64,000 bases of DNA from an uncultured Alphaproteobacteria bacterium (GCA_902515745.1 CABXWB010000006.1:23117-87116); one strand, 5' to 3'. Numbered from the stretch's first letter, positions 2,592 through 27,870 are shown. Numbers and translations: made by a program. The notes: generated from the sequence alone by a model not told the origin.

Positions 2592-3390
2592 TATAAAGCA
2601 AGATGACATTGAGGACATTTGTTTTAATGTAAGTCAAAATATTATCTTGCCAAAATTTAAAAATTTATCAGAGGATGATATTAATTATAAAAATGGATCT
2701 GATTTAGTAACAGCAGCTGATATAGAAGCAGAAAAAGAATTAAAAAAAAATCTCTTAAAAATATTACCTACTTCAAATTTCGTAGGTGAAGAGGAATATT
2801 CTAGAAATGAAAATATATTAAATCTTTATAAGGAAGATGCATATTGTTGGACTGTTGATCCAATAGATGGAACAACAAATTTTGCTAACGGTAGAGATAA
2901 ATTTGCAATAATGATTGCTTTAACTTTTAAAGAAAAAATTTTGCGTTCTTGGATATATAAGCCATTAGAAAAAATTATGTGCTCCGCTGTTGTAAATGAA
3001 GGTGCTTATATTAATAATAATAAAATTGTTACAAAAGCAAAAAATATAGTTGAAGAAACTATAGGATCAATAAGTACAAAGTATTGGGAGCCAGGATTTA
3101 AAGATAAGTTAAAGATGTTTAAAAACATATTTAAAGAAGTTAACTCTTATAGATGCATTGGTTTTGAATATATAGATATAGGCATAGGGATTAGAAATTT
3201 TGCTATTTTATCAAAACTATCCCCCTGGGATCACATTCCGGGTATTCTTTTTGTAAGAGAAGCAGGTGGTGCAGATATAGATTTTGATAAAAATAAATAT
3301 GACTTTACAAAAAAGAATAAGAATTTAATTGTAAGTAATTCAGAAGAATTGAATTTAAAAATTTTAGAAAAATTAGGAGAATATTCATGA
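2584..3390 (+). CDS. Inositol monophosphatase family protein
   Basis: DLVT.AD, GEE, WTVDPIDGTTNF and PWD motifs. Confidence 0.9.
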   Translation: MDNIKQDDIEDICFNVSQNIILPKFKNLSEDDINYKNGSDLVTAADIEAEKELKKNLLKILPTSNFVGEEEYSRNENILNLYKEDAYCWTVDPIDGTTNFANGRDKFAIMIALTFKEKILRSWIYKPLEKIMCSAVVNEGAYINNNKIVTKAKNIVEETIGSISTKYWEPGFKDKLKMFKNIFKEVNSYRCIGFEYIDIGIGIRNFAILSKLSPWDHIPGILFVREAGGADIDFDKNKYDFTKKNKNLIVSNSEELNLKILEKLGEYS

Positions 3391-4259
3391 GTATTAAAAA
3401 TGTTTCTTTTATTGGCTTAGGAGTAATGGGTTATCCAATGGCAGGTCATCTTCAAAACAAAGGTTATAATGTAACTGTGTATAATAGAACAACTGCTAAA
3501 GCAGAAAAATGGGTAGAAGAATATAAAGGTAGCATGGCTAAAACTCCTGGTGAAGCTTCTCAAAATTCTGAAATTGTTTTTATATGTGTTGGACGCGATG
3601 AAGATATTATTGAAGTTATGGAAGGTGAAGATGGAATTCTTTCAAAAGTAACTGAAGGATCAATAATTGTTGATCACACAACAGCTTCCGCAGAGATAGC
3701 AAGAAATTATTATCAAAAACTTAAAGATATAAAATTGAGTTTTCTTGATGCTCCTGTATCCGGTGGTCAAGCAGGTGCAGAAAATGGCGTTCTTTCTATT
3801 ATGATTGGCGGCGATGAAATAGATTATAATACTGTTAAACCAGTTCTCACATCTTATGGCAAAGCGGTTGAACTTATAGGTCCATCTGGATCTGGCCAAA
3901 TAGCTAAAATGATAAATCAAATTTGCATTGCAGGATTAGTTCAAGGTTTATCTGAAGCAATGGCTTTTGGAAAAAAATCCAATGTAGACATGGAAAAGGT
4001 TCTTAGCGTAATATCCAAAGGCGCAGCTCAATCGTGGCAAATGGAAAATAGATATAGAACTATGCTTGAAGGAAAGTTTGATTATGGTTTTGCCGTAGAT
4101 TGGATGCGTAAGGATTTATCAATTTGTTTTAATGAAGCTAATAAAAATGGTGCAAACCTTCCTATTACAAAAATAGTAGATAAATATTATGAAGAAGTCC
4201 AAAAAAATGGTGGTAATAGATTTGACACGTCATCTTTAATGACGCTAGTTGATAAATAG
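3387..4259 (+). CDS. NAD(P)-dependent beta-hydroxyacid dehydrogenase (3-hydroxyisobutyrate dehydrogenase family)
   Basis: FIGLGVMGYPMA, DAPVSGGQAGA and K.INQ motifs. Confidence 0.9.
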   Translation: MSIKNVSFIGLGVMGYPMAGHLQNKGYNVTVYNRTTAKAEKWVEEYKGSMAKTPGEASQNSEIVFICVGRDEDIIEVMEGEDGILSKVTEGSIIVDHTTASAEIARNYYQKLKDIKLSFLDAPVSGGQAGAENGVLSIMIGGDEIDYNTVKPVLTSYGKAVELIGPSGSGQIAKMINQICIAGLVQGLSEAMAFGKKSNVDMEKVLSVISKGAAQSWQMENRYRTMLEGKFDYGFAVDWMRKDLSICFNEANKNGANLPITKIVDKYYEEVQKNGGNRFDTSSLMTLVDK

Positions 4260-5167
4260 TGGTTAATAAATATTTATTAGCTATTATTTTATTAATTACT
4301 TCTTCTTTTTTTTGGTCTGGAAATTTTTTTGCTGGTAAAATTGCATATAATACAGACTTGTCTCCGTTTAAATTAAGTTTTTTTCGATGGACTTTAGCTT
4401 TTATTATACTTTTACCTTTTACATATAAGGAGATAAAAAAAAATTTAAAATATTATAAAGAAAATTTTTTATTAATTAGTTTGATTGCATTTCTTGGTGT
4501 AACTATCTTTAATTCTTTTACTTATATATCTTTACAAACTACACTTGTAATTAATTCTGCTCTTATGAATTCTGTAACACCAGTTCTAATAATTGGTTTC
4601 TCATGGTTAATATTTAAAACGAAAACAAGTTTACTCCAATTTATTGGAATATTTTTGTCTGTTATTGGTGCATTTTGTATTATTTTAAAAGGGAATTTAA
4701 ATAATCTTTATTCTTTTCAATTTACAAGTGGTGATATTTGGATGTTTATTGCTGCACTTTCATGGTGTGTATACTCAGTACTATTAAGAAAAATAGATAA
4801 AAATCTTTCTCAATTTGCAACTTTAGAAGTGCTTATATTTATTGGTCTAATTTTCCTCATACCTCTATATTTAATAGAGTCTTCAAATTCTACTTTCACT
4901 CCTGATAATAGTACTGATTACTTAATAATTATTTATGTAGCCATATTTGCAAGTATTGTTTCTTTTTTTTCTTGGAATATGGGAGTCTCAATTATAGGCG
5001 CTAACAGAGCTGGATTATTTTTACACTTAATACCTGTATTTAGTTCAATTTGGGCAATTAGTTTTTTAGGAGAACAATTTGCTTTATTTCATTTAATTGG
5101 AACTATATTTATATTATTGGGAATAATACTCTCAAACTTAAATTTAAAATATGTCAAAGATAATTAA
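4259..5167 (+). CDS. DMT/EamA family transporter
   Basis: 302 aa, about 10 hydrophobic segments, FWSGNF and GANRAGLF motifs; GTG start. Confidence 0.88.
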   Translation: MVNKYLLAIILLITSSFFWSGNFFAGKIAYNTDLSPFKLSFFRWTLAFIILLPFTYKEIKKNLKYYKENFLLISLIAFLGVTIFNSFTYISLQTTLVINSALMNSVTPVLIIGFSWLIFKTKTSLLQFIGIFLSVIGAFCIILKGNLNNLYSFQFTSGDIWMFIAALSWCVYSVLLRKIDKNLSQFATLEVLIFIGLIFLIPLYLIESSNSTFTPDNSTDYLIIIYVAIFASIVSFFSWNMGVSIIGANRAGLFLHLIPVFSSIWAISFLGEQFALFHLIGTIFILLGIILSNLNLKYVKDN

Positions 5168-5546
5168 AACAGATCAAGAATGGAAATCTCTGCTCACAGA
5201 GGACGAGTATTATGTAACAAGGCAAAAGGGAACAGAACCCCCATTCTCAGGTAAAAATTTTGAAATTACTAATGGTGGTATCTTTAAATGTAAATGCTGT
5301 GGCAATGAATTATTTAATAGTTCAACAAAATATGATTCATATTGTGGTTGGCCAAGTTTTTTTGAACAAATATCACCTGAAGCAATTAAAACAGAGATTG
5401 ATAGATCCCATGGAATGGTTCGTATTGAAATTATGTGTGCAAAATGTGATGCACATTTAGGTCATGTTTTTGATGATGGTCCTGAGCCAACAGGTAAAAG
5501 ATATTGTGTAAATTCTCTTTCTATTAATTACGAAGAGTTTGAATAA
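5151..5546 (+). CDS. msrB: Peptide-methionine (R)-S-oxide reductase
   Basis: GTEPPF, GWPSF, HLGHVFDDGP and RYCVNS motifs; two CxxC. Confidence 0.97.
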   Translation: MSKIIKTDQEWKSLLTEDEYYVTRQKGTEPPFSGKNFEITNGGIFKCKCCGNELFNSSTKYDSYCGWPSFFEQISPEAIKTEIDRSHGMVRIEIMCAKCDAHLGHVFDDGPEPTGKRYCVNSLSINYEEFE

Positions 5547-6717
5547 TACTTTTTATACACTCCTATTTTCATCAATAGGCCATGCATTAATGCACATGTT
5601 TGCTGCATTTTATTTTGTAATTGTATTGACTATAGAAAAAGAATGGAATGTTTCTTATGATCAATTAATTAGATTATGGTCTCTTGGAGCTTTACTGATT
5701 GGTTTAGGGGCAATTCCTTTTGGGTGGTTAAGTGACAAGTGGTCTCGCTCAGGAACAATGACAATTATGTTTATTGGAATGGGATTAGCTTCCATATTGT
5801 GTGGCTTTAGTACATCAATTTCTTTTTTATTTTTTTCATTATCGCTACTTGGATTTTTTTGTTCAATTTATCACCCTGTAGGTATTCCTTGGGTAATTCA
5901 TGCAGCAAACAAACAAGGAAGAGCTCTTGGTTTAAATGGTATTTTTGGTGGAGTAGGGATTGGGTCTGGAGCATTTGTTGCTGGTACTCTAACAGAATTA
6001 TTAAATTGGCAACTAGCTTTTATATTACCTGGTTTAATTTCGATAATATTTGGATTTATTCTGATATACTTAATCTTAATTGACAAAATATCTTACAAAA
6101 ATTATTTTATTAAAAATGATGATCAAGATCATTCGCGTAACGAAATGATTTTAATTTCCTTAATAATGCTTTTATCAATGTTTGCACTTGGATTATCATT
6201 TCACAATACACAAACAGCCTTACCTAAAGTTTTTGAGATAAGAATTGGTAACACAAACTCAATTCAAATTGGATTTATGATAGCAATTATCTATTTTATT
6301 TCAGGCGCTACAACATTTATTGGCGGTCTTCTTGCTGATCGATTTAATTTAAAAGCCATTTACTTAATTGGAATATTTCTCCAGTTTCCTTCCTACTTAG
6401 GTATAGCTTATATATCTGGCTATTCATTAGTAGTTTTATGTATTCTAGCTGCTATATTTAATGCCAGTATTCTACCAACAGAAAATCTACTTCTTGGAAG
6501 ATTTACACCTCAAAAGTATCATGGTGTTGTATATGGAATTAAATTTATTTTAGCTTTTGGTTCAGGACCAATTTCAGTATTCTTAATTTCAGAAATATAT
6601 TCTATTACATTGGAATTTACATATTTATTTTTAATTAATGCAATAATGATGGCTATTGTATCAATAGTTATTTTATTTTTACCATTCCAATCTAATAGAA
6701 ATGTAGTAAAAATTTAA
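5539..6717 (+). CDS. MFS transporter
   Basis: 392 aa, about 12 TM segments, GWLSDKW and GGLLADRF loop motifs. Confidence 0.9.
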   Translation: MNNTFYTLLFSSIGHALMHMFAAFYFVIVLTIEKEWNVSYDQLIRLWSLGALLIGLGAIPFGWLSDKWSRSGTMTIMFIGMGLASILCGFSTSISFLFFSLSLLGFFCSIYHPVGIPWVIHAANKQGRALGLNGIFGGVGIGSGAFVAGTLTELLNWQLAFILPGLISIIFGFILIYLILIDKISYKNYFIKNDDQDHSRNEMILISLIMLLSMFALGLSFHNTQTALPKVFEIRIGNTNSIQIGFMIAIIYFISGATTFIGGLLADRFNLKAIYLIGIFLQFPSYLGIAYISGYSLVVLCILAAIFNASILPTENLLLGRFTPQKYHGVVYGIKFILAFGSGPISVFLISEIYSITLEFTYLFLINAIMMAIVSIVILFLPFQSNRNVVKI

Positions 6718-6732
6718 ATAATCACAAATAAG

Positions 6733-6761
6733 TTGACCAATGAAAATTTTTAAGTTTTAAT
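6733..6761 (+). promoter_or_regulatory. Putative sigma70 promoter of the aldehyde dehydrogenase gene
   Basis: TTGACC-N17-TTTAAT with the ATG 6 nt downstream and no Shine-Dalgarno. Confidence 0.45.
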
Positions 6762-6766
6762 AAATT

Positions 6767-8239
6767 ATGTCTGAAATTCAAACATACAAATTTTATGCAG
6801 GAAATAGATGGCATGAACCTTCTGCTGAAAAATATTTTGAAAGTGAGGATCCATCTATAGGAAAAGTATGGGCAAAGGTCCCTGATTGTAATGAAAAAGA
6901 TATTAATCTTGCAGTATCATCTGCTAAACAGGCTTATTATGAAGGTCCTTATGGTAAAATGCATCCAGCAGAAAGAGGGAGAACATTAACTAGAATTGGA
7001 GATATTATTGCTAAAAATGCTGAACATATTGGGCAAATAGAAACTAAAGACAACGGCAAACTTCCAAAAAATATCACTCCTTCTTTAACCAGCTGGCAGA
7101 CTGAGAGTTTTTATTATTATGCAGGCATGTGTGACAAGTATGAAGGTAGATTGATACCTTCAGAGGTTCCAAATATGCACAATTACTTAAAATGGGAACC
7201 GTTTGGAGTTGTTGCACTCATTCTTCCTTGGAACTCACCAATTGGAACATTAATCTGGAAATTAGCTCCAGCAATAGCAGCTGGAAATACAGTTGTAATT
7301 AAACCCTCAGAAAGAGCATCGTGCTCTTCATTAGAGTTAATGAAAATTTTAGAAGAAGCCGATCTACCAGAAGGATTGATTAATGTTGTTACTGGTTTTG
7401 GTCCTACTACTGGCGCACCTCTTATTGAACACCAAGATGTTAGAATGATAAGTTTTACAGGTGGAACAAAAGGGGGGAGTGCAGCTAGTTTAAGTGCATC
7501 CAAAAATGTTAAACCTATTATTATGGAACTAGGAGGAAAATCACCACAAATTATATTTAAAGATGCTGATTTAACTTTATCAGTTAATGGAGTTGCATCA
7601 GGAATCTTTCCAGTTTCAGGTCATAGCTGTATTTCAGGATCAAGAATATTAGTACATAAAGATATAAAAGATAAATTTACTCATAATTTATTAGAAATTG
7701 TTAAAAAGGCTAAAGTTGGTCACCCAAATGATACAGAAACACAAATAGGACCGATAGCAAATAAAGAGCAATATGATTTTATTTTATCTAAAATAGAATC
7801 TGCTGAAAAAAGAGGTTTAAAATTATTAATTGATGGAAGAAGAGAACAAAAATCTGAAGGGTATTATATTGGACCAACTATTTTTGATAATGTTCCAAAT
7901 GAAGATGATTTAGCTCAAAATGAAGTATTTGGTCCTGTAGCCTCAATACAAACTTGGGAGGATGAAGATGAAGTAATTAAAATTGCAAACGATACTATTT
8001 ATGGACTTGCAGCAGGTATTTGGACTAAGGATACTAATAAAGCTATACGTTTAGCAGATAAGATAGAGGCTGGAACTGTTTATATAAATAATTATTTTAA
8101 TGCTTCTACTCAATCTCCAGTTGGAGGTTTCAAGCAATCAGGATACGGTCGAGAAAATGGATGGGAGGGAATGCAAAGTTACATGCAGACTAAATCTACT
8201 TGGCTAGATACCAATCCATATCAACCAAACCCATTTTAA
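6767..8239 (+). CDS. Aldehyde dehydrogenase family protein
   Basis: PWNSP, KPSE, FTGG, ELGGKSP, catalytic Cys in GHSCISGSR, EVFGPV. Confidence 0.93.
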   Translation: MSEIQTYKFYAGNRWHEPSAEKYFESEDPSIGKVWAKVPDCNEKDINLAVSSAKQAYYEGPYGKMHPAERGRTLTRIGDIIAKNAEHIGQIETKDNGKLPKNITPSLTSWQTESFYYYAGMCDKYEGRLIPSEVPNMHNYLKWEPFGVVALILPWNSPIGTLIWKLAPAIAAGNTVVIKPSERASCSSLELMKILEEADLPEGLINVVTGFGPTTGAPLIEHQDVRMISFTGGTKGGSAASLSASKNVKPIIMELGGKSPQIIFKDADLTLSVNGVASGIFPVSGHSCISGSRILVHKDIKDKFTHNLLEIVKKAKVGHPNDTETQIGPIANKEQYDFILSKIESAEKRGLKLLIDGRREQKSEGYYIGPTIFDNVPNEDDLAQNEVFGPVASIQTWEDEDEVIKIANDTIYGLAAGIWTKDTNKAIRLADKIEAGTVYINNYFNASTQSPVGGFKQSGYGRENGWEGMQSYMQTKSTWLDTNPYQPNPF

Positions 8240-8246
8240 AAAGCAA

Positions 8247-9038
8247 TTATTCTTTCCAGTTTGGTTCTCTTTTTTCTAAAAAAGCTTCAATGCCTTCCTT
8301 GGAGTCATCATGTAACATATTTTCCGTCATTACCTTTGAAGTAAATGTATAGGCGTCTTCTAAATTCATATCTTTTTGTTTGTAAAATGCTTCTTTACCA
8401 ATTTTAATAGTATTAAAAGATTTAGAAGATATTTTTTTAGCAATTTGAAATACATTTTCTTTTAAAATATCTTCTTCAAAGACATCATTTATTAAACCAA
8501 TCCTTAATGCTTTATTTGCATCTATAAGATCTCCAGTGAGAAGCATTTCCATTGCTTGTTTTTTACCCACAGTTCTTGATAATGGAACCATTGGTGTAGA
8601 ACAAAATAATCCAATATTAACACCAGGAGTTGCATATTTTGCTCTGCTACTTGAGTAAGCTAAATCACAGCTAGAAATTAACTGACAGCCTGCTGCAGTA
8701 GCAATACCATCAACCATAGCTATAACTGGTTTATTATTTTTATTAATTTTCAGCATAAGTTGAGAGCACATTTGAAATATTTTTTTAAAATAGCTTTCAC
8801 CTTTGTCATTTTGCAATCTTTGTGAATTTAAATCTTTTAAATTATGTCCTGCACAAAAAATATTACCTTTTGATGATAAAATAATTACTTTTACATCATT
8901 ATCTTTATCAGCAATATCTAGTGCTGATGTTAATTCATTGATCATGTTTTCAGTTAAAGTATTTTGGTTTTTCAGGTCATTAAGAATAATATTAAAAATA
9001 TTATTATTTTTTTTGGTTAATATTAGATTAAAATTCAT
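8247..9038 (-). CDS. Crotonase/enoyl-CoA hydratase family protein (ECHDC3-like)
   Basis: FCAGHNLK, ATAAGCQL, PGVNIGLFCSTP and EGIEAFLEKR motifs. Confidence 0.88.
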   Translation of the reverse strand: MNFNLILTKKNNNIFNIILNDLKNQNTLTENMINELTSALDIADKDNDVKVIILSSKGNIFCAGHNLKDLNSQRLQNDKGESYFKKIFQMCSQLMLKINKNNKPVIAMVDGIATAAGCQLISSCDLAYSSSRAKYATPGVNIGLFCSTPMVPLSRTVGKKQAMEMLLTGDLIDANKALRIGLINDVFEEDILKENVFQIAKKISSKSFNTIKIGKEAFYKQKDMNLEDAYTFTSKVMTENMLHDDSKEGIEAFLEKREPNWKE

Positions 9039-9485
9039 TTAATTGATTTGAATTTCAACATCTTTAGAAAGTGAATTAGCAATAAAACAATACTTATGTG
9101 ATCTCTCTTTCATCTTTTTCATTTCTTCATCAGAAATATTAAAATTATCTTCAAATACTATAGCTGGATTTAGCTCTATTTTGTTGACGTACATTCTTCC
9201 CTCTGCATTTTTTCCTAAATAAGAAATTGCTTTATCTTTATAATTAATAACTGGCCATTTCATTTTTGCAGCTAAAGCTAAGAATGTCATCATAAAACAA
9301 CTACTTACAGCTGCAGCTAGTTTTTGCTCTGGATTAATATTAGTTTCGCTTCCTCCATAATCTGGAGATGATCCCGCATCAATAGATACATTTTCGTTAA
9401 GCATTACTGTGTGATCAGTCAAGTATTTTCCAAATTCGAGTTTTTGATCTCCTAATTCCCACTTTAATTTGATTGAATGACTCAT
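9039..9485 (-). CDS. OsmC/Ohr family protein
   Basis: NPEQKLAAAVSSCFMMTFL and HKYCFIANS motifs carrying the two conserved Cys. Confidence 0.88.
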   Translation of the reverse strand: MSHSIKLKWELGDQKLEFGKYLTDHTVMLNENVSIDAGSSPDYGGSETNINPEQKLAAAVSSCFMMTFLALAAKMKWPVINYKDKAISYLGKNAEGRMYVNKIELNPAIVFEDNFNISDEEMKKMKERSHKYCFIANSLSKDVEIQIN

Positions 9486-9486
9486 T

Positions 9487-10608
9487 TTAAGAATAATTAA
9501 AAGGTAGTGAGCACACTTTACCTTTTCTCTCGATATTGTCTGGTGTTAATACGATAACATCCTGCCCATCATTCCAATAATCTCTATCAACCATTGATAG
9601 CCCAATATTGGTTTTTAAAAATGGTGAATAAATACCAGAGGTGATATTACCAATTTGAAATCTATTTTTTGAGTATACAGGAAAAGGTATTGTACACGAA
9701 GGAGTCGGCGACCCATCAAAAGTAATTCCTTTTATTTTTTTTTCTATTCCATTTTTTAATATTTTTTTTAGTGCATTTTTTCCAATGAAATCATGCGATA
9801 AATTGTTACAATAATCATCAAATCCACATTCAATTGGATTATTTTCTAAAGTAAATTCATTACCATAGGATAATAAACCACCTTCTATTCTATCAATTAA
9901 ATTTGGACATCCAGGTGAAATATTAAAATCTTTTCCTGCTTCCCAAATAGTTTCCCAAAGTTTTTTTCCTAAACTAAAACCTTTAAGGTAAATCTCAAAA
10001 CCATCTTGTTTGCTATATCCTGATCTTGCAATTATCTGTTTTGTTCTTTCAAATTCAAAAAAAGAAAAATGAAAGAATTTTAATTTTTTAATTTTTTCTC
10101 CAAATATTGATGACATTAATTTTTCAGATTTTGGACCTTGAATTGCTAAGGGATAAATATCTGGCTCTATAATATCAACTTTAAAATTTCTTCCTACAGC
10201 CAATCCTTTTGCCCAAAGAAGAACATCTGAATCTGCAACTGATAGCCAATATTTATTTTCACTTAATTTTAAAAGTACAGGATCATTTATCATCCCTGCA
10301 TTTTCATCAATCATTGGATAATAGTAACATTTACCAATAGGCATATCTTTTATAGACCTTGGAGACATGAGTTGTATTAATTCTGTAGCATCTTCTCCTA
10401 TTATTTGAACCTGTCGTTGACATGAAACATCCCAAATTTGAGTATTTTTAGATAAGTGCCAATAATCTTCTTCAACTGTTGCTTTATATGATTTTGGAAG
10501 AAGCATATGATTAACTACAGTAAAACCACTTACACCAGCCTCAATTACTTTCTCTGTATAGGGAGTCCTCCTAATACGTCTAGACATGTTTAATCCTGAA
10601 TTACTCAT
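9487..10608 (-). CDS. dmdA: DMSP demethylase-like protein (DmdA/GcvT fold, THF-dependent); divergent variant
   Basis: SRRIRRTPY, NHMLLP, NDPVLLKL, ADSD, ARSGYSKQ and PGCPNLIDRIE motifs; start revised to ATG 10608, 1 nt after the upstream stop. Confidence 0.75.
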   Translation of the reverse strand: MSNSGLNMSRRIRRTPYTEKVIEAGVSGFTVVNHMLLPKSYKATVEEDYWHLSKNTQIWDVSCQRQVQIIGEDATELIQLMSPRSIKDMPIGKCYYYPMIDENAGMINDPVLLKLSENKYWLSVADSDVLLWAKGLAVGRNFKVDIIEPDIYPLAIQGPKSEKLMSSIFGEKIKKLKFFHFSFFEFERTKQIIARSGYSKQDGFEIYLKGFSLGKKLWETIWEAGKDFNISPGCPNLIDRIEGGLLSYGNEFTLENNPIECGFDDYCNNLSHDFIGKNALKKILKNGIEKKIKGITFDGSPTPSCTIPFPVYSKNRFQIGNITSGIYSPFLKTNIGLSMVDRDYWNDGQDVIVLTPDNIERKGKVCSLPFNYS

Positions 10609-10609
10609 T

Positions 10610-10945
10610 TTATTTAGACCACCATATTGAGTATCCATTTGGAGAAATAATTAAAGGTATGTGATATTTTTTAAGAGGATCTTTCATTTTAAATTTAACA
10701 CTGATTGAATTAATTATTTCACTAGTATTTCTAAAATATTTACCAGAATTAATTATCATTTCATAATCACTTTCACAATCTTCTTTCGTTAATTCAAATT
10801 CTTTAAGCATTCTTCCAGAACTATCTGTTTTATCTTCTAGAAATACGACTTTGTTATTATTATTTACTTTATAAATAACAATTTCTACATCACTTGCATG
10901 CGTACCATCTATTGAGTTTAGTAAATGTGTTGAAAAAATTGCCAT
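10610..10945 (-). CDS. Transthyretin-like (5-hydroxyisourate hydrolase family) protein with non-canonical C-terminus
   Basis: STHLLN, TD..GR and YHIPLIISP.GYS motifs; ends IWWSK rather than YRGS. Confidence 0.8.
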   Translation of the reverse strand: MAIFSTHLLNSIDGTHASDVEIVIYKVNNNNKVVFLEDKTDSSGRMLKEFELTKEDCESDYEMIINSGKYFRNTSEIINSISVKFKMKDPLKKYHIPLIISPNGYSIWWSK

Positions 10946-10948
10946 AAC

Positions 10949-12691
10949 CTACTCTATAGACGCTTTATCTCTTTTATCACTTACTGCAGCAACTATTGGA
11001 CTGATAACACCTTTAGCCTTAACATTTAAACATGCAGTTTTACCACTTTCTAACGCTCTTTTTAAAGCGGGGCCTAAATCTTCTCTTTTAGTAACTAATT
11101 CTCCATGTCCTCCAAAACCCTCAAAAATTGAATGAAATGGAATATCTCTAAAATCAGTTGCAAAGTGTTTCCCACTTTCAAACAACCTTTCTTGTTGTTG
11201 AGAAATACAGTCAAGACCTCCATTGTTATCGATAACTACAACAATAGGTTTTTTTTCTTGAAATGCAGCTTCAATTGATAATCCGCCAGATAAAAATGCA
11301 CCATCTCCACTTATTAAAACAACATTAGATTTAGGATTAAGATTTTTCGCTGATACTGCAAAAGGAACTCCAACACCTAACATACTAAAAGTGCCTGGAT
11401 GTAATATTCCTCCAAGTTTTTTACCTTTTGATCCAGCAATATTAATTGCAATCTCAGACCAGAAATGTGTGTTTCCACCATCAATAACTAACCAATCATT
11501 TTCAGTTAATACTTCTTGAACATCTAAAGCTAACTGAAGAGGATGAATTTTTCCACCTTCTTTTTTAGCCTCTTCAGTTTCTTTATTTAAATCATCTAAT
11601 GTTTTATCAATCCAATTTTTTTTCTCTTTTTTATTCTTATCAAACCATTCATTATTTAATTTCCATTTACTATTTTTCTTTAATTCTACGAGTTTATCCA
11701 AAAAGACTCCAGGATCACAAAGTAAATTAATATCTGCAGCTCTATTTAATTCTATTTCTTCATGTGATCCATTAATACAAACAAGCTTTGTGCTTTTTGG
11801 AAAAAGTGGAGGATTACCAAAATTCATTTGATTATCAAGACGTGCACCAATCATAAGAACCAAATCTGATTCATTGAGAGCCATCTTTGATGGGGGATAT
11901 TGATGAATATCTGCAAGACCCATATATGTATCTGCCTCTTCACCTAAAAGTTTTTGGTGGTATGGTATATTAAATATTGGAATATTTAATTCAAACCCAG
12001 CTTGCTCTAATTTTTTTTCTGCACTAGACCACCAAACTCCATGCCCTCCAATAAAAACTGGTTTTTTAGCATTAATTGCTAGATCAAATATTTCATTTAA
12101 ACTCTTAGGATCGGGCCAAGCTTTTGCTAAAGGTTTTTTTTGTTGAGTAAACGGTCTTTCTTCTAAACCTGCATCATCTGCAAATGATGAAAACATTATA
12201 TCTACTGGCACACTTAAATGTACAGCACCTGGATAACCATTTGTTGCTATTCTATAAGCTTTATCTACGAACTCCCTTATTCTATTGCCATCTGTTATAC
12301 TGGCACTGTATTTTGTTAAAGGTGCAGCAATAGATACATCATCTATTTCCTTAAAACCGCCTGATCCTTGTCTTTTTAAGCTACTAGATCCAGTTATAAA
12401 AATAACAGGGGATCTTTCACCCCAAGCTTCCATCATTGAGGGTACTGCATTTGCGAAACCTTCTGGCCCAACAATACAAACAGATGGTTTTCTTGATATT
12501 CTAGTATGACCATCAGCTAAATGACCAGCAATTTGTTCATGAGGACAATTAATTACATTAATTTGACACTCCATAAATCCTTCAAGTGCCGGATTACAAA
12601 AACCTCCAGAAAGTGTAAAAACATTATCAATACCTTTGTCTTTAATAGCTCTTGCAACTAATGCTCCACCTCTAATCTTTTTATCTCCCAT
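10949..12691 (-). CDS. Thiamine-diphosphate-dependent enzyme (ALS/2-hydroxyacyl-CoA lyase superfamily)
   Basis: HEQ catalytic Glu; GDGAF...NN ThDP motif; 580 aa three-domain size. Confidence 0.88.
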   Translation of the reverse strand: MGDKKIRGGALVARAIKDKGIDNVFTLSGGFCNPALEGFMECQINVINCPHEQIAGHLADGHTRISRKPSVCIVGPEGFANAVPSMMEAWGERSPVIFITGSSSLKRQGSGGFKEIDDVSIAAPLTKYSASITDGNRIREFVDKAYRIATNGYPGAVHLSVPVDIMFSSFADDAGLEERPFTQQKKPLAKAWPDPKSLNEIFDLAINAKKPVFIGGHGVWWSSAEKKLEQAGFELNIPIFNIPYHQKLLGEEADTYMGLADIHQYPPSKMALNESDLVLMIGARLDNQMNFGNPPLFPKSTKLVCINGSHEEIELNRAADINLLCDPGVFLDKLVELKKNSKWKLNNEWFDKNKKEKKNWIDKTLDDLNKETEEAKKEGGKIHPLQLALDVQEVLTENDWLVIDGGNTHFWSEIAINIAGSKGKKLGGILHPGTFSMLGVGVPFAVSAKNLNPKSNVVLISGDGAFLSGGLSIEAAFQEKKPIVVVIDNNGGLDCISQQQERLFESGKHFATDFRDIPFHSIFEGFGGHGELVTKREDLGPALKRALESGKTACLNVKAKGVISPIVAAVSDKRDKASIE

Positions 12692-12692
12692 C

Positions 12693-13856
12693 TTAATACT
12701 TTATATCCTTAAAAAATTTCTCTGCTATAATTTTTTTATCAACTTCATTTATATCGGTTAATCCCACTAAGCCAAGATTTGTACTTAACTCTTCTTTAAT
12801 TAGGTTAATGATTCTTCTAAGACCTCTTGCACCATCTGCTCCAATAGCATACATTAAAGGTCTGCCAAACATAACAAAGTTAGCTCCCAGGGCTAATGCG
12901 CGTAAAATATCACTACCACTTCTAATGCCACTATCAAAAAATATTGGAAAATCTTCTCCCAAAGCTTTTCGTATTAATGGCAAAGCATTAATAGAAGCAG
13001 TAGCACTATCTAATTGCCTTCCACCATGATTTGATACTTGAATTGCATCAGCACCAGCCTCTTTAATATTCAAAGCATCTTCAAAATTCATTACTCCTTT
13101 GATTATTAATTTTCCTTTCCAAGCGTCTCGAACTCTTTTTAGAGTATTCCAATCAGTTGCTCCTCTACTTTCTTTTCGTCTAAAAATTTGATCACCACTT
13201 TTAGAGGTAACATAATTCATTGGTTGTGGAGCGCCTTTGAACAAAGTTGTTAAGCTCCATTGAGGATGTAGTGCAAAATCTAAAAATTGTTTTGGGCCAA
13301 TTTTAAAGGGATAACCAAAGCCATTTCTATCATCTCTGGCTCTTCGTGAAAGAATTGGAACATCAACAGTAAGGATCAAAACCTTGTATCCAATACTTTC
13401 TGCTCTTTTTAATAATTCCATAATAAATTCTTCACTTTGAAAAATATATATTTGCATCCATGAATGACCTTCTGAAAAAGTAAACATATCTTCAAGTGTT
13501 GTACTCGAAGCCATTGAAACACATGTTGGAATATTATTATATGCACTTTCTTTAGCTATCATTTTATCTGCTTCAGGCCATGAAAGATTTGTCATTCCCA
13601 TTGGTGCAAATCCAAATGGATAATCAAAATGAAAATCAAATATTTTTTTACTTAAATTTCTATTCTCAACATTTCTAAAAACCTTAGGTTCAAGTCTAAT
13701 TTGATCTAATGCAGTACTATTAATTTCAGCAAGTTTATCATCTCCTGATGCTCCATCAATAAAATCAAAGACTAATTTAGGTAATCTTTTTTTAGATAAT
13801 CTTATCGCATCATCTATTGTATAGATTTTAGTGCTAGGTCTAATAAGCTCATTCAT
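12693..13856 (-). CDS. FMN-dependent alpha-hydroxy acid oxidase/dehydrogenase (LldD/mandelate dehydrogenase family)
   Basis: LTVD, IKGV, VSNHGGRQLD, DSGIRSG and GRP motifs. Confidence 0.93.
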   Translation of the reverse strand: MNELIRPSTKIYTIDDAIRLSKKRLPKLVFDFIDGASGDDKLAEINSTALDQIRLEPKVFRNVENRNLSKKIFDFHFDYPFGFAPMGMTNLSWPEADKMIAKESAYNNIPTCVSMASSTTLEDMFTFSEGHSWMQIYIFQSEEFIMELLKRAESIGYKVLILTVDVPILSRRARDDRNGFGYPFKIGPKQFLDFALHPQWSLTTLFKGAPQPMNYVTSKSGDQIFRRKESRGATDWNTLKRVRDAWKGKLIIKGVMNFEDALNIKEAGADAIQVSNHGGRQLDSATASINALPLIRKALGEDFPIFFDSGIRSGSDILRALALGANFVMFGRPLMYAIGADGARGLRRIINLIKEELSTNLGLVGLTDINEVDKKIIAEKFFKDIKY

Positions 13857-13904
13857 TTTAATATTTGTATTCTAATATAATTTATAATTCTATTATAAAA
13901 TATA

Positions 13905-15134
13905 TTAGTTTTTTGAAATACCCTTCCAAGGTATTGGACTAGATGGAATATCTTCTTTTATACCTCTTTGTATTTCTCCTTTCTCATCATACATTGGTAA
14001 AGTACATATTTCACCTTTTTGCACACTACCATCATCACATCTAACATCTACTATTGTGTCTGGCCCAAACTCTGCTTTATCCATATGAACTATAGCAACA
14101 CCACAAACTTGAAATGGCGACCATGTACTTGAAGTTACAATTCCAACTTTTTTATTATCAATAGAAATTTCAGAATCAACCAACGCAAAGCTATTTTCTA
14201 CTCTCATACCCCATGTTAAACAATCTTTGCTTGCATTAAGTAAATAATCTCTTCCAATAAAATCTCCTTTATTAAAATCTATAAACTTTCCTAATCCAAC
14301 GGCAAATGGAGATCGATCTCTCGTAAAATCTCTCCCTGCAGATAAGAGACCTGCCTCAATTCTTCTACATCTAAATCCTGGTGAGGCTGTTAGAATCATT
14401 CCCATTTCTTCACCTTTACTGAGTATTAAGTCTCCAATTTTTTTTGAATCATTTTCTGGTCTTAAATAAATTTCCCAGCCAAGTTCATTTGTAAAGCCTG
14501 TTCTGCTTATAAGCACTTCTTCTGAATCAATTGAAGTTTCAACCCAATCAAAATAATTAAAATTATTTTTTAATGGTTGATCAACTAGTTTTTCTAAAAG
14601 TTTTAAAGATTTAGGGCCTTGTATTTGACTGACCCAAACGTTTGGATCTTTAATTTCAACATCTAAATTTTTCGAATGAGCTTTGTACCAACTATATAAA
14701 TGTCCATCACCTTGTGCAAACCAAAATTTATTTTTTTCTAATCTTAATAATAATCCATCTGAAATCATTCCCCCATCATGGTAACAAGCAAATTGATAAG
14801 AACATCGTCCTATTTTTACTTTTGAAATATCCCTAGGAAATATTTGTTGAAGTAAATTTTCAGCATCCGGACCAGAGATTTCGTATGGATGCTCACCCGT
14901 ATGACGTAAAATTATTTCTCGTCTAGCTTTCCAATACATTTCATCTGCTGTAGCATGAGATAATTTTTCAAGCGTAAATCTGCCATCGGCGTAGTTAGTA
15001 TATTCTGGGTTAAGTGGTAACTCTTGATATGTAAGAGGATGTATTTTCATAGGCCTAGCCAAATCTAAAGATCTACCAGTTTCTTTAACCACTGGCTTTA
15101 CAACAAATCTGAAATTACTAACTAAATCTCCCAT
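13905..15134 (-). CDS. Aminomethyltransferase (GcvT-fold) family protein, unknown substrate
   Basis: GPDA, QIQGPKS, SRTGFTNELGWEIY, RRIEAG and DFIGR motifs. Confidence 0.85.
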   Translation of the reverse strand: MGDLVSNFRFVVKPVVKETGRSLDLARPMKIHPLTYQELPLNPEYTNYADGRFTLEKLSHATADEMYWKARREIILRHTGEHPYEISGPDAENLLQQIFPRDISKVKIGRCSYQFACYHDGGMISDGLLLRLEKNKFWFAQGDGHLYSWYKAHSKNLDVEIKDPNVWVSQIQGPKSLKLLEKLVDQPLKNNFNYFDWVETSIDSEEVLISRTGFTNELGWEIYLRPENDSKKIGDLILSKGEEMGMILTASPGFRCRRIEAGLLSAGRDFTRDRSPFAVGLGKFIDFNKGDFIGRDYLLNASKDCLTWGMRVENSFALVDSEISIDNKKVGIVTSSTWSPFQVCGVAIVHMDKAEFGPDTIVDVRCDDGSVQKGEICTLPMYDEKGEIQRGIKEDIPSSPIPWKGISKN

Positions 15135-15175
15135 AAAATTTGTTCAACTTATCACAAAATAATGAAAAAAAAATT

Positions 15176-16099
15176 TTAAAATAAATTCTTAATTGCTTCA
15201 ATATGTCGTGGCTTTACTTCACAGCATCCACCAACTAGAGTAACACCTTCATTTAAAGATTTTAAAACAAACTTTTTATATTTTTCTTCTTTAAATTCCT
15301 CTTTTCGAGTCCCAAGTAACTCAACGGGATCAATATAATCATAATGTCCTTCAAAACCTTCTGAATTGAATTTTTCTTCATTACTAGTAGGCAGTTGTTT
15401 AAATAAATTCATTTTATAACCAAAAGGAAGCTTTTGTTTATTAAATATAGGAATGCTTAAATTTACGATTTCAGGTGATACGCAGGCTGATACTATGCCG
15501 CAACAATTAAATTTTTGAATAGTTTCAAAAAGTTCTTCAAGACTTTCTCCAGATGGTAATTTCCCATCATAACGTAAGTGCACACCTACAAGAACTTGTT
15601 TATTAAATTCTTTTGAAGCTTCCAAAGCAATTTTTATTTCTTTGATGGAACACAAAACATCTAAGTAAAATATATCGACGTAATCTTTTAATATTTTTGC
15701 AATTTCATGAAAATAATTAAACATTGTTTCATCAGTTTCAAAATGTATTGGGGAATATGTATTTCCTTGGTTTGGTAGAGAGCCTGCGAGAATAATTTTC
15801 TTATCACTTTCATTTTTTGCTTTTAATGCGAGTGCTCCAGCAGATCTTATTCCAAATTCAAATTTATCAAGTAAATTGTATTTTTTTAATAATCTCCTTC
15901 TAACACTAAAATTTGATGTAACGATTAATTGTGATCCCGCATTTATAAAATTTTTATGCATTTCTACGACCATTGAGTGATTATTTTCATTTAATAAAGC
16001 TTCTGCAGACCAAAGATCACCTGTAGTTTCTAAACCCATTTCCATTAAAGTTTGACCGGAACCACCATCAAAGAGGTATTTCTTATTTTTTAAAAACAT
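15176..16099 (-). CDS. Homocysteine S-methyltransferase family protein (MmuM/BHMT-like)
   Basis: DGG N-terminal motif, H..FI.AG, Zn ligands in SACVSPE and GGCC. Confidence 0.88.
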   Translation of the reverse strand: MFLKNKKYLFDGGSGQTLMEMGLETTGDLWSAEALLNENNHSMVVEMHKNFINAGSQLIVTSNFSVRRRLLKKYNLLDKFEFGIRSAGALALKAKNESDKKIILAGSLPNQGNTYSPIHFETDETMFNYFHEIAKILKDYVDIFYLDVLCSIKEIKIALEASKEFNKQVLVGVHLRYDGKLPSGESLEELFETIQKFNCCGIVSACVSPEIVNLSIPIFNKQKLPFGYKMNLFKQLPTSNEEKFNSEGFEGHYDYIDPVELLGTRKEEFKEEKYKKFVLKSLNEGVTLVGGCCEVKPRHIEAIKNLF

Positions 16100-16124
16100 T
16101 TTTTTGTGAGATTAGTTGAAATAA

Positions 16125-16148
16125 TGTGGCGCATTTAAATGCGCCACA
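16125..16148 (-). terminator. GC-rich hairpin downstream of the binding-protein gene (terminator or mRNA stabiliser)
   Basis: Perfect palindrome TGTGGCGCATTTAAATGCGCCACA, followed by TTATTT on the minus strand. Confidence 0.7.
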
Positions 16149-16163
16149 AAGAAAATTAATATT

Positions 16164-17792
16164 TTATGCAAACCACCAACGTTCAGAAAGTTTGTTACCG
16201 TCACTTTCCCAGTTACCAGCAACGTCTTCTCCGTGAGCAAGTTTTTTAGAACCAGCACCAACATATTGGTTAAATGCATAAACAATTGCACCACCATCGT
16301 AGTTACAAAGAGCTTGTGCTTCCCAGTACATTGATTTTCTTTTTTCTGCATCAAGTTCTGATCTAGCAGATCTAACAAGTTCATTGAAACGAACAGTTGA
16401 ATCAGTTTGAACTAGATTACCCCAAGCAGCTTCATTCCATTCAGTATCATCTGTGAATGCAGCAGACCACATCATATCTTCTGTAGGTCTTCCACCCCAA
16501 GAACTCATACTGAAGCCTTTAGTATTCCATACGTTACTCCAGTAACCATCTTCAGGCTCTTTTTTAACCCTAAGATCGATACCACATTCTTGAGCGGAAG
16601 CTGCAATCAAGTTAGTTGCATCTGTACAACCTGCATAAGGAACCTCAGAAGTACTAATTTCAATTGGTCCACTTACACCAGATTTTTTCCAGTGATAAGA
16701 AGCTTTATCAGCATCGAACTCTCTTTGCTCTAAAGCACCATTGTGATATGGGTGCGCGGTAGAGATCGGATGATCATTACCAACAGTACCATATCCAAGC
16801 ATAATCTTATCAACAATTTCCTGCCTTTTAATTGCAAATTTTAATGCCATACGAACATCAAAGTTATCAAACGGTGGAACGTTTAATCTCATTGGCGCTG
16901 TATAGTGAGCGTACCCAGAAGCTGCTGTGATTTCTACACTAGGATTTCTAGTTAATAGATTTGCAGTTCTAAGATCAACACCATTCATCCAATCAATTTC
17001 ACCATTTAATAAAGCTGCTTGTCTTGTTGCAGGATCATTAATTCCAATTACTTCAACTGAATCAAAGTGTGCAACACCATCACCTTTAAAATAATTTGGA
17101 TTTCTTTTTCCAAATTTTGCACCAACACCTGGGTTGAATTCATCCATAATATATGGACCAGTTCCAATCGTAGATTGAGCGTCAACCACTCCATCTTTTG
17201 TTGGTTTAATCATAATGTGATAGTCAGTTGTTATTGCAGGCCAATCGGCATTAGCTCCTTTTAGCTTAAAAATAACTCTGTCATTTCCATCAGCTGAAAT
17301 TGTATCAATTTGAGATAACAACCCACCTGCTGCCGAAGCAGTATCTGGATTCATATGATACTGGTAGTTGAGTACAACATCTTCTGCAGTCATTGATTTA
17401 CCATTATGGAATTCAACTCCTTTACGAAGATTATACACCCAAGTTTGAGCATCATCTGATTCAATTGATTCAGCTAGCTCTCCAACAATTGTATGATCTG
17501 AATCAACAACTGTTAGACAGTTCTGATATGACCAAGCAGTAGCTTGCATAAACGAGCTCTGATAAGTCGCTGGATCAAGAGTATCAGTTGCATCTGCTGC
17601 ACTGTTACCCCATCTTAAATGTCCACCTTTTTTTGGTGTAGCAGCAACCGCTTTATCTGCTAAAGATAATGCAATTGGAAGCGTAACCCCAGTAGCAAGG
17701 ACAGACATCATGAACTGTCTTCTATCAATAAGCCCTTTTGTAAGCTTTGAAGACTGTTCCTCAATGTATTTGTCTATTTTCTTATTTTTCAT
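16164..17792 (-). CDS. Family-5 (Opp/Dpp-type) ABC substrate-binding protein with Tat signal
   Basis: DRRQFM twin-arginine motif, LDPA, LRKGVEFHNG and GTGPY motifs; GGAGG Shine-Dalgarno before ATG 17792 supports the revised start. Confidence 0.92.
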   Translation of the reverse strand: MKNKKIDKYIEEQSSKLTKGLIDRRQFMMSVLATGVTLPIALSLADKAVAATPKKGGHLRWGNSAADATDTLDPATYQSSFMQATAWSYQNCLTVVDSDHTIVGELAESIESDDAQTWVYNLRKGVEFHNGKSMTAEDVVLNYQYHMNPDTASAAGGLLSQIDTISADGNDRVIFKLKGANADWPAITTDYHIMIKPTKDGVVDAQSTIGTGPYIMDEFNPGVGAKFGKRNPNYFKGDGVAHFDSVEVIGINDPATRQAALLNGEIDWMNGVDLRTANLLTRNPSVEITAASGYAHYTAPMRLNVPPFDNFDVRMALKFAIKRQEIVDKIMLGYGTVGNDHPISTAHPYHNGALEQREFDADKASYHWKKSGVSGPIEISTSEVPYAGCTDATNLIAASAQECGIDLRVKKEPEDGYWSNVWNTKGFSMSSWGGRPTEDMMWSAAFTDDTEWNEAAWGNLVQTDSTVRFNELVRSARSELDAEKRKSMYWEAQALCNYDGGAIVYAFNQYVGAGSKKLAHGEDVAGNWESDGNKLSERWWFA

Positions 17793-18004
17793 TTGTCCTC
17801 CCTTATAATTGAACAAAAACCTAAGATTTTTGTTCATAATTTCTAGAAATTTAACAAAAAACAAACTTAAGTTAATATATAAAAACATATATAACATTTT
17901 AATTCAACGTATAAATTATTAATTAATTATTAATTTTAGCTTGTATGTTGAGTCAATTTTGACAAAACTTTAAGAACTACAATTGTATCTTTAAGGAGGG
18001 TAAC

Positions 18005-19003
18005 ATTACTAGGATTCATCCAATATTTAGAACAATTTTGTTAAGACTTACTCTTGGTCTCGTCACCGTTTTTGCATTTTCGGTAATAATATTTAGTACA
18101 TTCTCTTTTCTACCAGGAGATTTTGCCACAGAAATATTAGGTCAAAGTGCAACAAAATCTGCAGTTAAAGCTCTAAGAGCAGAATTAGGTTTAGATAAAC
18201 CTCCAGTGACAAGATACTTTGATTGGCTAGGAAATGTTTTTCAAGGAGATTTTGGAAGTTCTTTTTCTGGAAGATCTAAAGTCCAGGGTGATCAAGGTGA
18301 TAGATCTAGAGAGGTTGTTGGATTAATTATTCCAAGGCTTAAGAATACTTTATTTTTAACTGGAGTTGCCGCCATGTTGGCAATTCCTCTATCCTTAATT
18401 TTAGGTATCTCAGCAGCATTATACAGAAACTCTTATTATGATAGGTCTGCAACTGGAGTCAGCTTAGTGACTGTATCATCACCAGAATTTTTTACTGCTT
18501 ATATTTTTATTCTTTTATTAGCGACTCTATTTCCAGTTTTTCCAACAATTGCAACTGTCGATGAGGACACAACTTTAGTTGAAAGATTTTACAGGACGGC
18601 ACTTCCAGTTTTTACATTAACATTAATTACAATGGGTCACATGATGAGAATGACAAGGTCAGCTATAATTAATATTTTATCAAGTGAATATATTGAGATG
18701 GCAAAATTATCAGGTGCTTCAAGATACGAAGTAATTGTTAAGCACGCACTTCCAAATGCATGGGCTCCTATTTCTCAAGTAATTGCAATAAACTTAGCTT
18801 ATATGTTGATTGGCTCAGTTGTTGTTGAATACGTTTTTAATTATCAAGGTATTGGCAGACTGATGGTTGGCTCTGTTTACAATCGAGATCTTCCTGTTGT
18901 TCAAGCTTGTGCATTAATTTTTGCATCAACATATGTAATATTAAACCTAATTGCAGACTTGATTGGTATTATTTCTAACCCAAGGTTATTATATCCAAAA
19001 TGA
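18005..19003 (+). CDS. Opp/Dpp-type ABC permease (B subunit); start uncertain (ATT 18005 or 18014, TTG 18038)
   Basis: LPGD, LGLDKP, EAA-like loop SEYIEMAKLSG...HALPNA, RDLPVVQ. Confidence 0.9.
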   Translation: MTRIHPIFRTILLRLTLGLVTVFAFSVIIFSTFSFLPGDFATEILGQSATKSAVKALRAELGLDKPPVTRYFDWLGNVFQGDFGSSFSGRSKVQGDQGDRSREVVGLIIPRLKNTLFLTGVAAMLAIPLSLILGISAALYRNSYYDRSATGVSLVTVSSPEFFTAYIFILLLATLFPVFPTIATVDEDTTLVERFYRTALPVFTLTLITMGHMMRMTRSAIINILSSEYIEMAKLSGASRYEVIVKHALPNAWAPISQVIAINLAYMLIGSVVVEYVFNYQGIGRLMVGSVYNRDLPVVQACALIFASTYVILNLIADLIGIISNPRLLYPK

Positions 19004-24482: not shown

Positions 24483-24499
24483 TTTGTAAATTTTGTAAA
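24483..24499 (+). promoter_or_regulatory. Putative ScfR-family autoregulatory operator
   Basis: TTTGTAAA-T-TTTGTAAA; the last A is the A of the regulator ATG. Confidence 0.55.
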
Positions 24500-26946: not shown

Positions 26947-26948
26947 AA

Positions 26949-27869: not shown

Positions 27870-27870
27870 A

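Follow-up and report, generated by a model that had tools for sequence, protein, structure and literature searches.

A conserved four-gene unit joins a second DmdA-type demethylase, probably of environmental clade C, to an FMN dehydrogenase, a thiamine diphosphate enzyme and a transthyretin-like protein in Alphaproteobacteria

The abundance of the gene dmdA is the standard proxy for how much dimethylsulfoniopropionate (DMSP) is demethylated rather than released as climate-active dimethyl sulfide. The described pathway, DmdA-DmdB-DmdC-DmdD/AcuH, is that of Candidatus Pelagibacter ubique HTCC1062 and Ruegeria pomeroyi, and in HTCC1062 dmdA is followed by a hydrolase gene, fadD and mmgC, according to a passage of PMC3160333. 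Subclades C/2 and D/1 are named as the most prevalent dmdA subclades in marine systems in a passage of a 2026 review (PMC13360808), and the C/2 primers are given as 291F and 482R with an amplicon of 191 bp (PMC10076866). A preprint mentions one to three dmdA copies per Pelagibacter genome. In passages of PMC5395565 and PMC13360808, 4-dimethylsulfonio-2-hydroxybutyrate (DMSHB), 4-methylthio-2-hydroxybutyrate (MTHB) and their 2-oxo forms figure as intermediates on the route to DMSP. Here we analyse a stretch of 64,000 nucleotides from an uncultured Alphaproteobacteria bacterium (GCA_902515745.1 CABXWB010000006.1:23117-87116), referred to as the window, in which a four-gene unit joins this widely counted DMSP marker gene to three enzymes without a role in the known pathway. 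The window has a G+C content of about 30%, and the families of its open reading frames (ORFs) were assigned via Pfam and NCBIfam.

All four genes lie on the minus strand. The first encodes a flavin mononucleotide (FMN)-dependent (S)-2-hydroxyacid dehydrogenase, predicted to be of the membrane-associated LldD/MdlB type (FMNdh; 12693-13856; FMN_dh, 394.7 bits). It is followed by an orphan thiamine diphosphate (ThDP) enzyme with the three TPP_enzyme domains N, M and C (10949-12691), by a divergent protein of the transthyretin/hydroxyisourate hydrolase (HIUase) fold (TTR; 10610-10945; Transthyretin, 70.7 bits), and by a DmdA-type, tetrahydrofolate (THF)-dependent demethylase of putative environmental clade C (DmdA-C; 9487-10608; GCV_T and GCV_T_C, DmdA equivalog). 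An OsmC-family gene (9039-9485) and a crotonase gene (8247-9038) continue the run. A sequence-only reading of this DNA had described a six-gene run separated by 1, 3, 1, 1 and 0 nt, and the ORFs and the sequence itself bear out these gaps. The families it named also hold at Pfam level (FMN_dh, three TPP_enzyme, Transthyretin, GCV_T with GCV_T_C, OsmC, ECH_1 and a convergent Aldedh). The 1-nt gap between TTR and DmdA-C depends on taking the ATG at 10608 as the DmdA start; with this start, the alignment to P. ubique DmdA (PDB 3tfh) opens at residue 1. The longest DmdA ORF begins at 10638 and would run into the TTR gene.

A scan of a genome collection returned 532 relatives of the ThDP gene, and the best 80 loci were profiled. 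These are 44 loci of the window's own genus group and 36 others, the latter comprising 35 Pelagibacter-type loci (Pelagibacter, Pelagibacteraceae, Pelagibacterales) and one from a metagenome-assembled genome titled Rhodobacterales (L114). TTR comes after ThDP in 80 of 80 loci. Where the contig leaves room, FMNdh is directly upstream of ThDP in 74 of 74 and DmdA-C lies within two genes after TTR/ThDP in 76 of 76, with core gaps in related loci mostly of 0-5 nt. Some related loci carry ThDP genes 96-99% identical to that of the window (e.g. AG-8xx, Pelagibacteraceae bacterium AG-337-I02). The conserved core is four genes, FMNdh-ThDP-TTR-DmdA, moving as a block in two families. Since this gene order is kept across 80 related loci, the tight packing of the cluster is not due to chance.

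The full arrangement, from the ABC transporter through the convergent aldehyde dehydrogenase (ALDH), is kept in the 44 own-genus loci. The 36 others keep only a GcvT-like gene, FMNdh, ThDP, TTR and DmdA-C, and in none of them are OsmC, crotonase or ALDH adjacent; a thiolase gene usually stands after DmdA-C, and the family-5 ABC system found upstream is a different one (about 30% identical). The oxidase, ThDP and TTR genes that the sequence-only reading had grouped with DmdA do accompany it in other genomes, so that the lack of co-occurrence which would have refuted that reading is not seen for them; OsmC, crotonase and ALDH are the part that fails outside the genus. It had also made the ALDH a step of the pathway, and because this gene is not adjacent in the 36 other loci, the proposed step is left without a conserved gene.

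Protein identities between the window and the Pelagibacter-type loci are 82-88% for ThDP, 66-75% for FMNdh, 60-65% for the GcvT-like protein, 61-70% for DmdA-C and 49-60% for TTR. The higher identity of ThDP than of its neighbours (49-75%) could reflect unusual constraint or a separate transfer of the ThDP gene. In 33 Pelagibacteraceae loci a Peptidase_S51 gene precedes FMNdh, and in most loci from L090 to L125 it overlaps the FMNdh start by 4-8 nt (e.g. L104, 8156-8845). The gene was not found in the window's genome, which is 89.7% complete. Its position is a hint that the substrate may be peptide-like or aspartyl-linked.

We then considered co-occurrence in 251 Pelagibacteraceae genomes (completeness of at least 80 requested). 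ThDP is present in 28 and DmdA-C in 28, both side by side in 27, and 222 have neither. One exception has ThDP only, the gene ending 1026 nt from the contig end (G324), and the other has DmdA-C only (G356). The window's genome, that of a low-GC, SAR11-like alphaproteobacterium of the AG-337-I02 group, falls in a GTDB family of 116 genomes, its own genus accounting for 104. This family differs from the much larger one of the cultured Pelagibacter strains, and the group would correspond to the HIMB59/AEGEAN-169 lineage. Our literature search found no publication linking AEGEAN-169, HIMB59 and dmdA. The ThDP gene occurs in 70 of 104 other genomes of the genus, most of which are incomplete, and in none of 11 genomes from other genera of the family. 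A sample of 400 other Pseudomonadota genomes likewise yielded no member of the ThDP family at E <= 1e-110, only three candidates per genome being scored. On this evidence of fixed order and co-occurrence, there is a strong case that DmdA-C works with, or at least is selected with, FMNdh, ThDP and TTR.

The window DmdA reaches 527.5 bits against the NCBIfam DmdA equivalog NF009133, well over the cut-off of 410. It had been called a paralog before, and the genome does have a canonical DmdA besides: the window gene (527 bits) and a gene on contig C3 (526 bits) both exceed 410, and they are 45% identical. The C3 copy is nearer to P. ubique DmdA, with 545 bits to PDB 3tfh against 402 for the window copy. 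Two cultured Pelagibacter, Uisw_090 (G116) and HIMB1709 (G117), each likewise have two genes above this cut-off, one canonical and one module DmdA, the latter scoring 564 and 521 bits to the DmdA model, respectively.

Neither dmdB nor dmdC stands beside the module. As previously noted, both are missing from the window at Pfam level, and all four AMP-binding and two Acyl-CoA_dh_1 matches of the genome are on contigs C1, C3, C9 and C10; the best ligase candidate in the genome has 342 bits, with a DmdB cut-off of 822. As for acuI, also reported as absent, the window does hold an MDR-type reductase at 25939-26946. Curcumin reductase CurA is its best NCBIfam match, at 307 bits under a cut-off of 440, and none of its matches was to an AcuI model.

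A quick maximum-likelihood tree of 49 rows was built for the DmdA proteins. Its rows are nine module DmdAs (seven of the 80 loci, the window copy and the same-genus L204), canonical copies, further members of the GcvT family and 29 genes drawn from a class-wide sample. The module rows are monophyletic (SH-aLRT 100) and nested in a 28-row DmdA core clade (100), to which the canonical DmdAs of SAR11 and high-scoring DmdAs from larger alphaproteobacterial genomes also belong.

The published C/2 primers match the module DmdA without mismatch (0+0), at a spacing of 192 bp, in nine of the 11 Pelagibacteraceae loci L115-L125, and with 1+1 and 1+0 mismatches in the remaining two. Mismatches rise to 1-7 in other Pelagibacteraceae loci and to 1-4 and 2-5 in own-genus loci, the window gene having 3+3. 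The D/1 primers fit best the canonical copy of Uisw_090 (1+4 mismatches). The module DmdA is therefore the gene targeted by the C/2 primers, and it is assigned to environmental clade C on this primer match, with clade definitions taken from secondary sources.

A Trp-to-Tyr exchange was considered as a marker of a new specificity. Tyr is found in 9 of 9 aligned module DmdAs and Trp in the SAR11 canonical copies. Because seven of the nine highest-scoring DmdAs from other Alphaproteobacteria (L194-L202) have the same Tyr, this marker was discarded.

Around the canonical DmdA on contig C3 (L009, 5074-15135) there are genes for a sulfotransferase, a class IV aminotransferase, an MFS transporter, a 3-hydroxyisobutyrate-dehydrogenase-like protein, two EamA proteins and an ABC system, and neither dmdB nor dmdC was found in the neighbourhood examined. 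HIMB1709 has three clustered GcvT-family genes on contig C1, at about 12015-16547, with 134.7, 236 and 191.7 bits to the DmdA model.

The FMN enzyme had been called an alpha-hydroxy acid oxidase. It does belong to the FMN_dh family (PF01070), and it appears to be a membrane-type LldD/MdlB-like dehydrogenase instead of an oxidase. Its nearest full-length solved chain is the (S)-mandelate dehydrogenase MdlB (6bfg), with which residues 9-373 align, including the membrane segment. The catalytic SNHGGRQLD motif, with its His and Arg, is kept in this alignment. Position Tyr26 (mandelate dehydrogenase numbering), which we take to be carboxylate-binding, is Phe in the window protein and in 73 of 73 full-length orthologues. 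All NCBIfam scores are below their cut-offs, with 266.8 against 376 bits for the LldD subfamily, and 223.4 against 550 and 159.2 against 645.5 for the other LldD/L-lactate oxidase models.

The ThDP enzyme reaches no NCBIfam cut-off, the best score being 267.7 against 587 bits. It falls short of 2-hydroxyacyl-CoA lyase (HACL; 242.1 vs 600) and of oxalyl-CoA decarboxylase (OXC; 204.3 vs 557 and 188.7 vs 739). Among solved structures HACL/OXC come first, at 188 bits, with benzaldehyde lyase also near, and the protein is about equidistant from HACL, OXC, benzaldehyde lyase and acetolactate synthase. ThDP enzymes carry the cofactor motif GDG...NN, and the translation reads SGDGAF...DNNGG; the protein is recognised as a general ThDP enzyme, and its C-terminal tail is strongly conserved.

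Relatives of this protein are few. Among 1.84 billion representatives, the only full-length ones with at least 35% identity are at 68%, 49% and 35%, after which come generic ThDP enzymes at 33% or less. A homologue search gave 98-100% identity for all 120 matches listed. A metagenome scan with the 49% relative (P0123) returned 64 loci, of which only L126 and the partial L159 are close; L126 is 43% identical to P0123 and 47% to the window enzyme. No module was found at either, both lying on short contigs next to TRAP/TTT transporters. More distant relatives (47-58% identity) adjoin TRAP or TTT carboxylate transporters. The ThDP enzyme forms a narrow subfamily, and its gene is the most conserved of the module.

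The TTR protein has 70.7 bits against the HIUase equivalog TIGR02962, whose cut-off is 87.45. The canonical HIUase C-terminal motif is YRGS; the window protein ends in WWSK, and 79 of 80 orthologues have WWS[KQEN]. A better-scoring HIUase gene (113.5 bits) lies beside an OHCU decarboxylase gene on contig C11 of the same genome, and TTR is, as with DmdA-C, an additional copy that has diverged, a paralog of this canonical HIUase. Searching the ESM Atlas with TTR gave "hydroxyisourate hydrolase" clusters only.

Upstream of FMNdh, also on the minus strand, is a GcvT-family gene distinct from DmdA (13905-15134; GCV_T and GCV_T_C), the usual companion of the core. Its product scores 178.8 bits with the DmdA model and 180.4 with the trimethylamine N-oxide demethylase model, both far under the cut-off. 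The gene precedes the core in all 33 own-genus loci where the contig leaves room and, among L086-L125, in most Pelagibacter-type loci, L092, L106 and L114 being without it. Next is a homocysteine S-methyltransferase-like gene, whose donor may be of the betaine or the S-methylmethionine type (15176-16099, minus strand; S-methyl_trans 139.6 bits, all NCBIfam scores below cut-off). It is kept in the own genus, and outside it occurs in only 2 of 36 loci (L090 and L093, 46% identity).

The GcvT-like gene is 48 nt upstream of FMNdh, and the methyltransferase gene 41 nt further upstream. A terminator-like hairpin of 10 pairs, including 6 G-C (16148-16125), lies between the methyltransferase gene and that of a family-5 ABC substrate-binding protein (SBP; 16164-17897, minus strand; SBP_bac_5 228.2 bits). 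Because of these short gaps, and because the hairpin parts the unit from the SBP gene, the minus-strand unit probably has eight genes, from methyltransferase to crotonase. The earlier proposal of a single operon is thus upheld in its tight packing and not in its six-gene extent, as the unit probably starts two genes upstream. A gathering-threshold Rfam scan of the window found no riboswitch, its sole match being one tRNA, and a promoter scan gave no more sites than in shuffled sequence.

Contigs from four RNA-library seawater runs, belonging to four studies, were placed on 6700-18000. They cover 30 of 30 depth bins in three runs and 29 in the fourth, and they bridge the junctions OsmC/DmdA, DmdA/TTR/ThDP, ThDP/FMNdh, FMNdh/GcvT-like, GcvT-like/methyltransferase and methyltransferase/SBP. 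Among the pieces listed, none bridges crotonase/OsmC. These four are among 14 runs recorded as RNA that contain 34-44% of the words sampled from 8200-16200. The RNA-library contigs are consistent with transcription at sea and with co-transcription. In all four runs, contig word depth is far higher over the SBP gene than over the downstream cluster. As contig depth cannot rank genes, the drop after the SBP hairpin is only a hint of attenuation.

Several genes around the module belong to the window's lineage only. The OsmC-family protein has 57.6 bits to its Pfam model. The crotonase is ECHDC3-like (NF006008, 361.4 bits, cut-off 313): among solved chains human ECHDC3 (2vx2) comes closest, at 234.8 bits, and the 25 PDB matches at E <= 1e-25 include no DmdD chain. 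As a general crotonase, it may have an AcuH-type function. Convergent to it, the ALDH gene (6767-8239, plus strand; Aldedh 525.1 bits) is a neighbour in the own lineage only, and in NCBIfam it comes closest to betaine-aldehyde dehydrogenase, with 457.4 bits under a cut-off of 668.6. This ALDH ends a plus-strand run whose earlier part (1746-6717) encodes a class IV aminotransferase, an inositol-monophosphatase-family protein, a 3-hydroxyisobutyrate-dehydrogenase-like protein, EamA, MsrB and an MFS transporter. Genes for 3-hydroxyisobutyrate-dehydrogenase-like, EamA and MFS proteins also stand together around the canonical DmdA.

The SBP has only weak PDB matches, and PDB searches assigned no ligand to either of the two SBP5 proteins. 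In L114, an SBP 52% identical to that of the window stands directly upstream of FMNdh. The permeases and fused ATPase of the same transporter are encoded divergently (18038-21520, plus strand; two BPD_transp_1, ABC_tran) and are kept in own-genus loci. On their 3' side, at 21807-24190 (plus strand), are genes for an SDR protein and a GMC oxidoreductase. The latter (22589-24190) is choline-dehydrogenase-like, exceeding the choline dehydrogenase subfamily cut-off with 699.7 against 605 bits, and the ALDH could equally be a partner of this gene. Farther on, 25939-28761 (minus strand) and 24499-25938 (plus strand) hold a trio of carnitine-type catabolism, made up of an L-carnitine-dehydrogenase-like gene (342.6 bits, cut-off 414), a BKACE-family cleavage enzyme gene and the CurA/LTB4DH-like reductase, adjoined by a RamB-like regulator.

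An FMN dehydrogenase together with a ThDP enzyme follows the logic of the mandelate pathway, and the presence of a sulfonium demethylase alongside them points to a 2-hydroxy or 2-oxo acid bearing methylated sulfur. We therefore favour, with a probability of about 0.4, a module that catabolises a methylated organosulfur 2-hydroxy/2-oxo acid related to DMSP and methionine, such as DMSHB. DmdA-C would pass the S-methyl group to THF, the FMN enzyme would oxidise the 2-hydroxyl to a 2-oxo group with electrons going to the membrane, and the ThDP enzyme would decarboxylate or cleave the 2-oxo acid. The products would enter the methylmercaptopropionate or methionine pools. In favour of this reading we count the gene linkage and co-occurrence, the identity of DmdA-C and its status as an extra copy, the equally extra TTR gene, the carboxylate transporters beside distant ThDP relatives, and the junctions bridged by RNA-library contigs. 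Our literature searches, which did not extend to supplementary neighbourhood tables, found no described pathway with this gene set, in agreement with the sequence-only reading. A bolder version, which we consider unlikely, is that dmdA clade C may be, in the cell, not a DMSP demethylase but a step of a dedicated pathway for another algal sulfonium, e.g. DMSHB. Such a pathway would run algal DMSP synthesis backwards to methionine or methylmercaptopropionate, harvesting methyl groups and reduced sulfur for SAR11-type bacteria.

Several observations weigh against an organosulfur substrate. The module is not accompanied by a conserved aldehyde dehydrogenase, CoA ligase or aminotransferase, and the proposed route needs no HIUase-like hydrolase, which leaves TTR without a role in the scheme. 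The ThDP enzyme is nearest to acyl-CoA-dependent lyases and decarboxylases, not to 2-oxoacid decarboxylases, and the FMN enzyme lacks the carboxylate-binding Tyr. The island also holds nitrogen-onium genes (carnitine-dehydrogenase-like, BKACE, choline-dehydrogenase-like). DmdA-C has no demonstrated change of specificity, and since its Tyr also occurs in other top-scoring alphaproteobacterial DmdAs, it may be an ordinary DMSP demethylase. The RNA-library contigs are no proof of a single transcript, as DNA may be included. Finally, DMSHB is a candidate substrate drawn from sequence and linkage.

If DmdA-C is instead a second DMSP demethylase isozyme, FMNdh, ThDP and TTR would degrade a sulfur-free 2-hydroxy acid (lactate, glycolate or similar), and the genes would travel together through the use of phytoplankton exudates. 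We hold this somewhat unlikely. It accords with a DmdA-C that exceeds the equivalog cut-off, falls inside the DmdA clade and has the active-site motif of high-scoring DmdAs in other Alphaproteobacteria, and with distant ThDP relatives that have no adjoining DmdA. The best named matches of the FMN enzyme are indeed L-lactate enzymes, but it stays under every lactate-enzyme cut-off. Moreover, the module genomes already own a canonical DmdA, and without a shared pathway it would be difficult to account for genes that, in both families, co-occur almost perfectly in one order and only 0-5 nt apart.

The three methyl-transfer genes that form one unit in the window's lineage can also be read together, with the GcvT-like protein, the homocysteine methyltransferase and DmdA-C stripping methyl groups successively from a nitrogen-onium or other methylated hydroxy acid, e.g. 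a hydroxylated betaine. The carnitine-dehydrogenase-like, BKACE and choline-dehydrogenase-family genes of the window, and its ALDH resembling betaine-aldehyde dehydrogenase, would fit such a substrate. However, these onium genes are unlinked to the module in Pelagibacter-type loci, the methyltransferase is absent from 34 of 36 loci outside the genus, and to our knowledge all DmdA-family members of known function use a sulfonium donor; we regard this as quite improbable. Still less probable is a ThDP enzyme of HACL/OXC type, which would place the module on CoA thioesters, in an alpha-oxidation-like branch for methylmercaptopropionate or a related acid. HACL and OXC are its nearest solved and named relatives, its C-terminal tail is strongly conserved, and a CoA-pathway gene comes after the module in both lineages (crotonase here, thiolase in Pelagibacteraceae). 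Against it, the HACL and OXC cut-offs are missed widely (242 vs 600; 204 vs 557), no CoA ligase is linked, and the FMN_dh family acts on free 2-hydroxy acids.

The module offers three enzymes without an assigned reaction, namely the ThDP subfamily, the HIUase paralog and an LldD-like dehydrogenase minus the carboxylate-binding Tyr. All three are present in cultured Pelagibacter (HIMB1709 and Uisw_090), which makes the question directly testable. If clade C is not a DMSP demethylase but a step in a dedicated pathway for another sulfonium, a large share of the surveyed "dmdA" (C/2) would report a different flux, and new reactions would be expected of both the orphan ThDP enzyme and the modified protein of the HIUase fold.

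In terms of known systems, the mandelate pathway MdlB-MdlC-MdlD of Pseudomonas putida is similar in having a membrane-type FMN (S)-2-hydroxyacid dehydrogenase followed by a ThDP enzyme. The module differs in that its ThDP enzyme is not close to benzoylformate decarboxylase, with HACL/OXC and benzaldehyde lyase ranking first, and in that it adds a demethylase and TTR and has no conserved aldehyde dehydrogenase. The HACL/OXC family shares the three-domain fold of the ThDP enzyme and provides its best solved matches, but the scores are far below the cut-offs and identity is about 30% or less. TTR has the fold of HIUase (PucM/HiuH), and differs from it by a score below the cut-off, an altered C-terminal signature and the separate HIUase in the same genome.

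The DMSP pathway and the module have in common a THF-dependent demethylase that passes the curated DmdA model, in SAR11-type genomes. In the module this enzyme has no adjacent dmdB or dmdC, its partners being the FMN dehydrogenase, the ThDP enzyme and TTR, and the window crotonase is ECHDC3-like and not DmdD-like. As for subclade C/2 of the surveys (Howard/Varaljay scheme), the literature consulted gave no mention of fixed operon partners or of second-copy status. Its published primers match the module DmdA exactly in most of the L115-L125 loci (9 of 11), and surveys count this gene as potential for DMSP demethylation. If one of the most abundant subclades invariably closes an uncharacterised operon and is in every case a second copy, its substrate and flux need to be measured rather than assumed.

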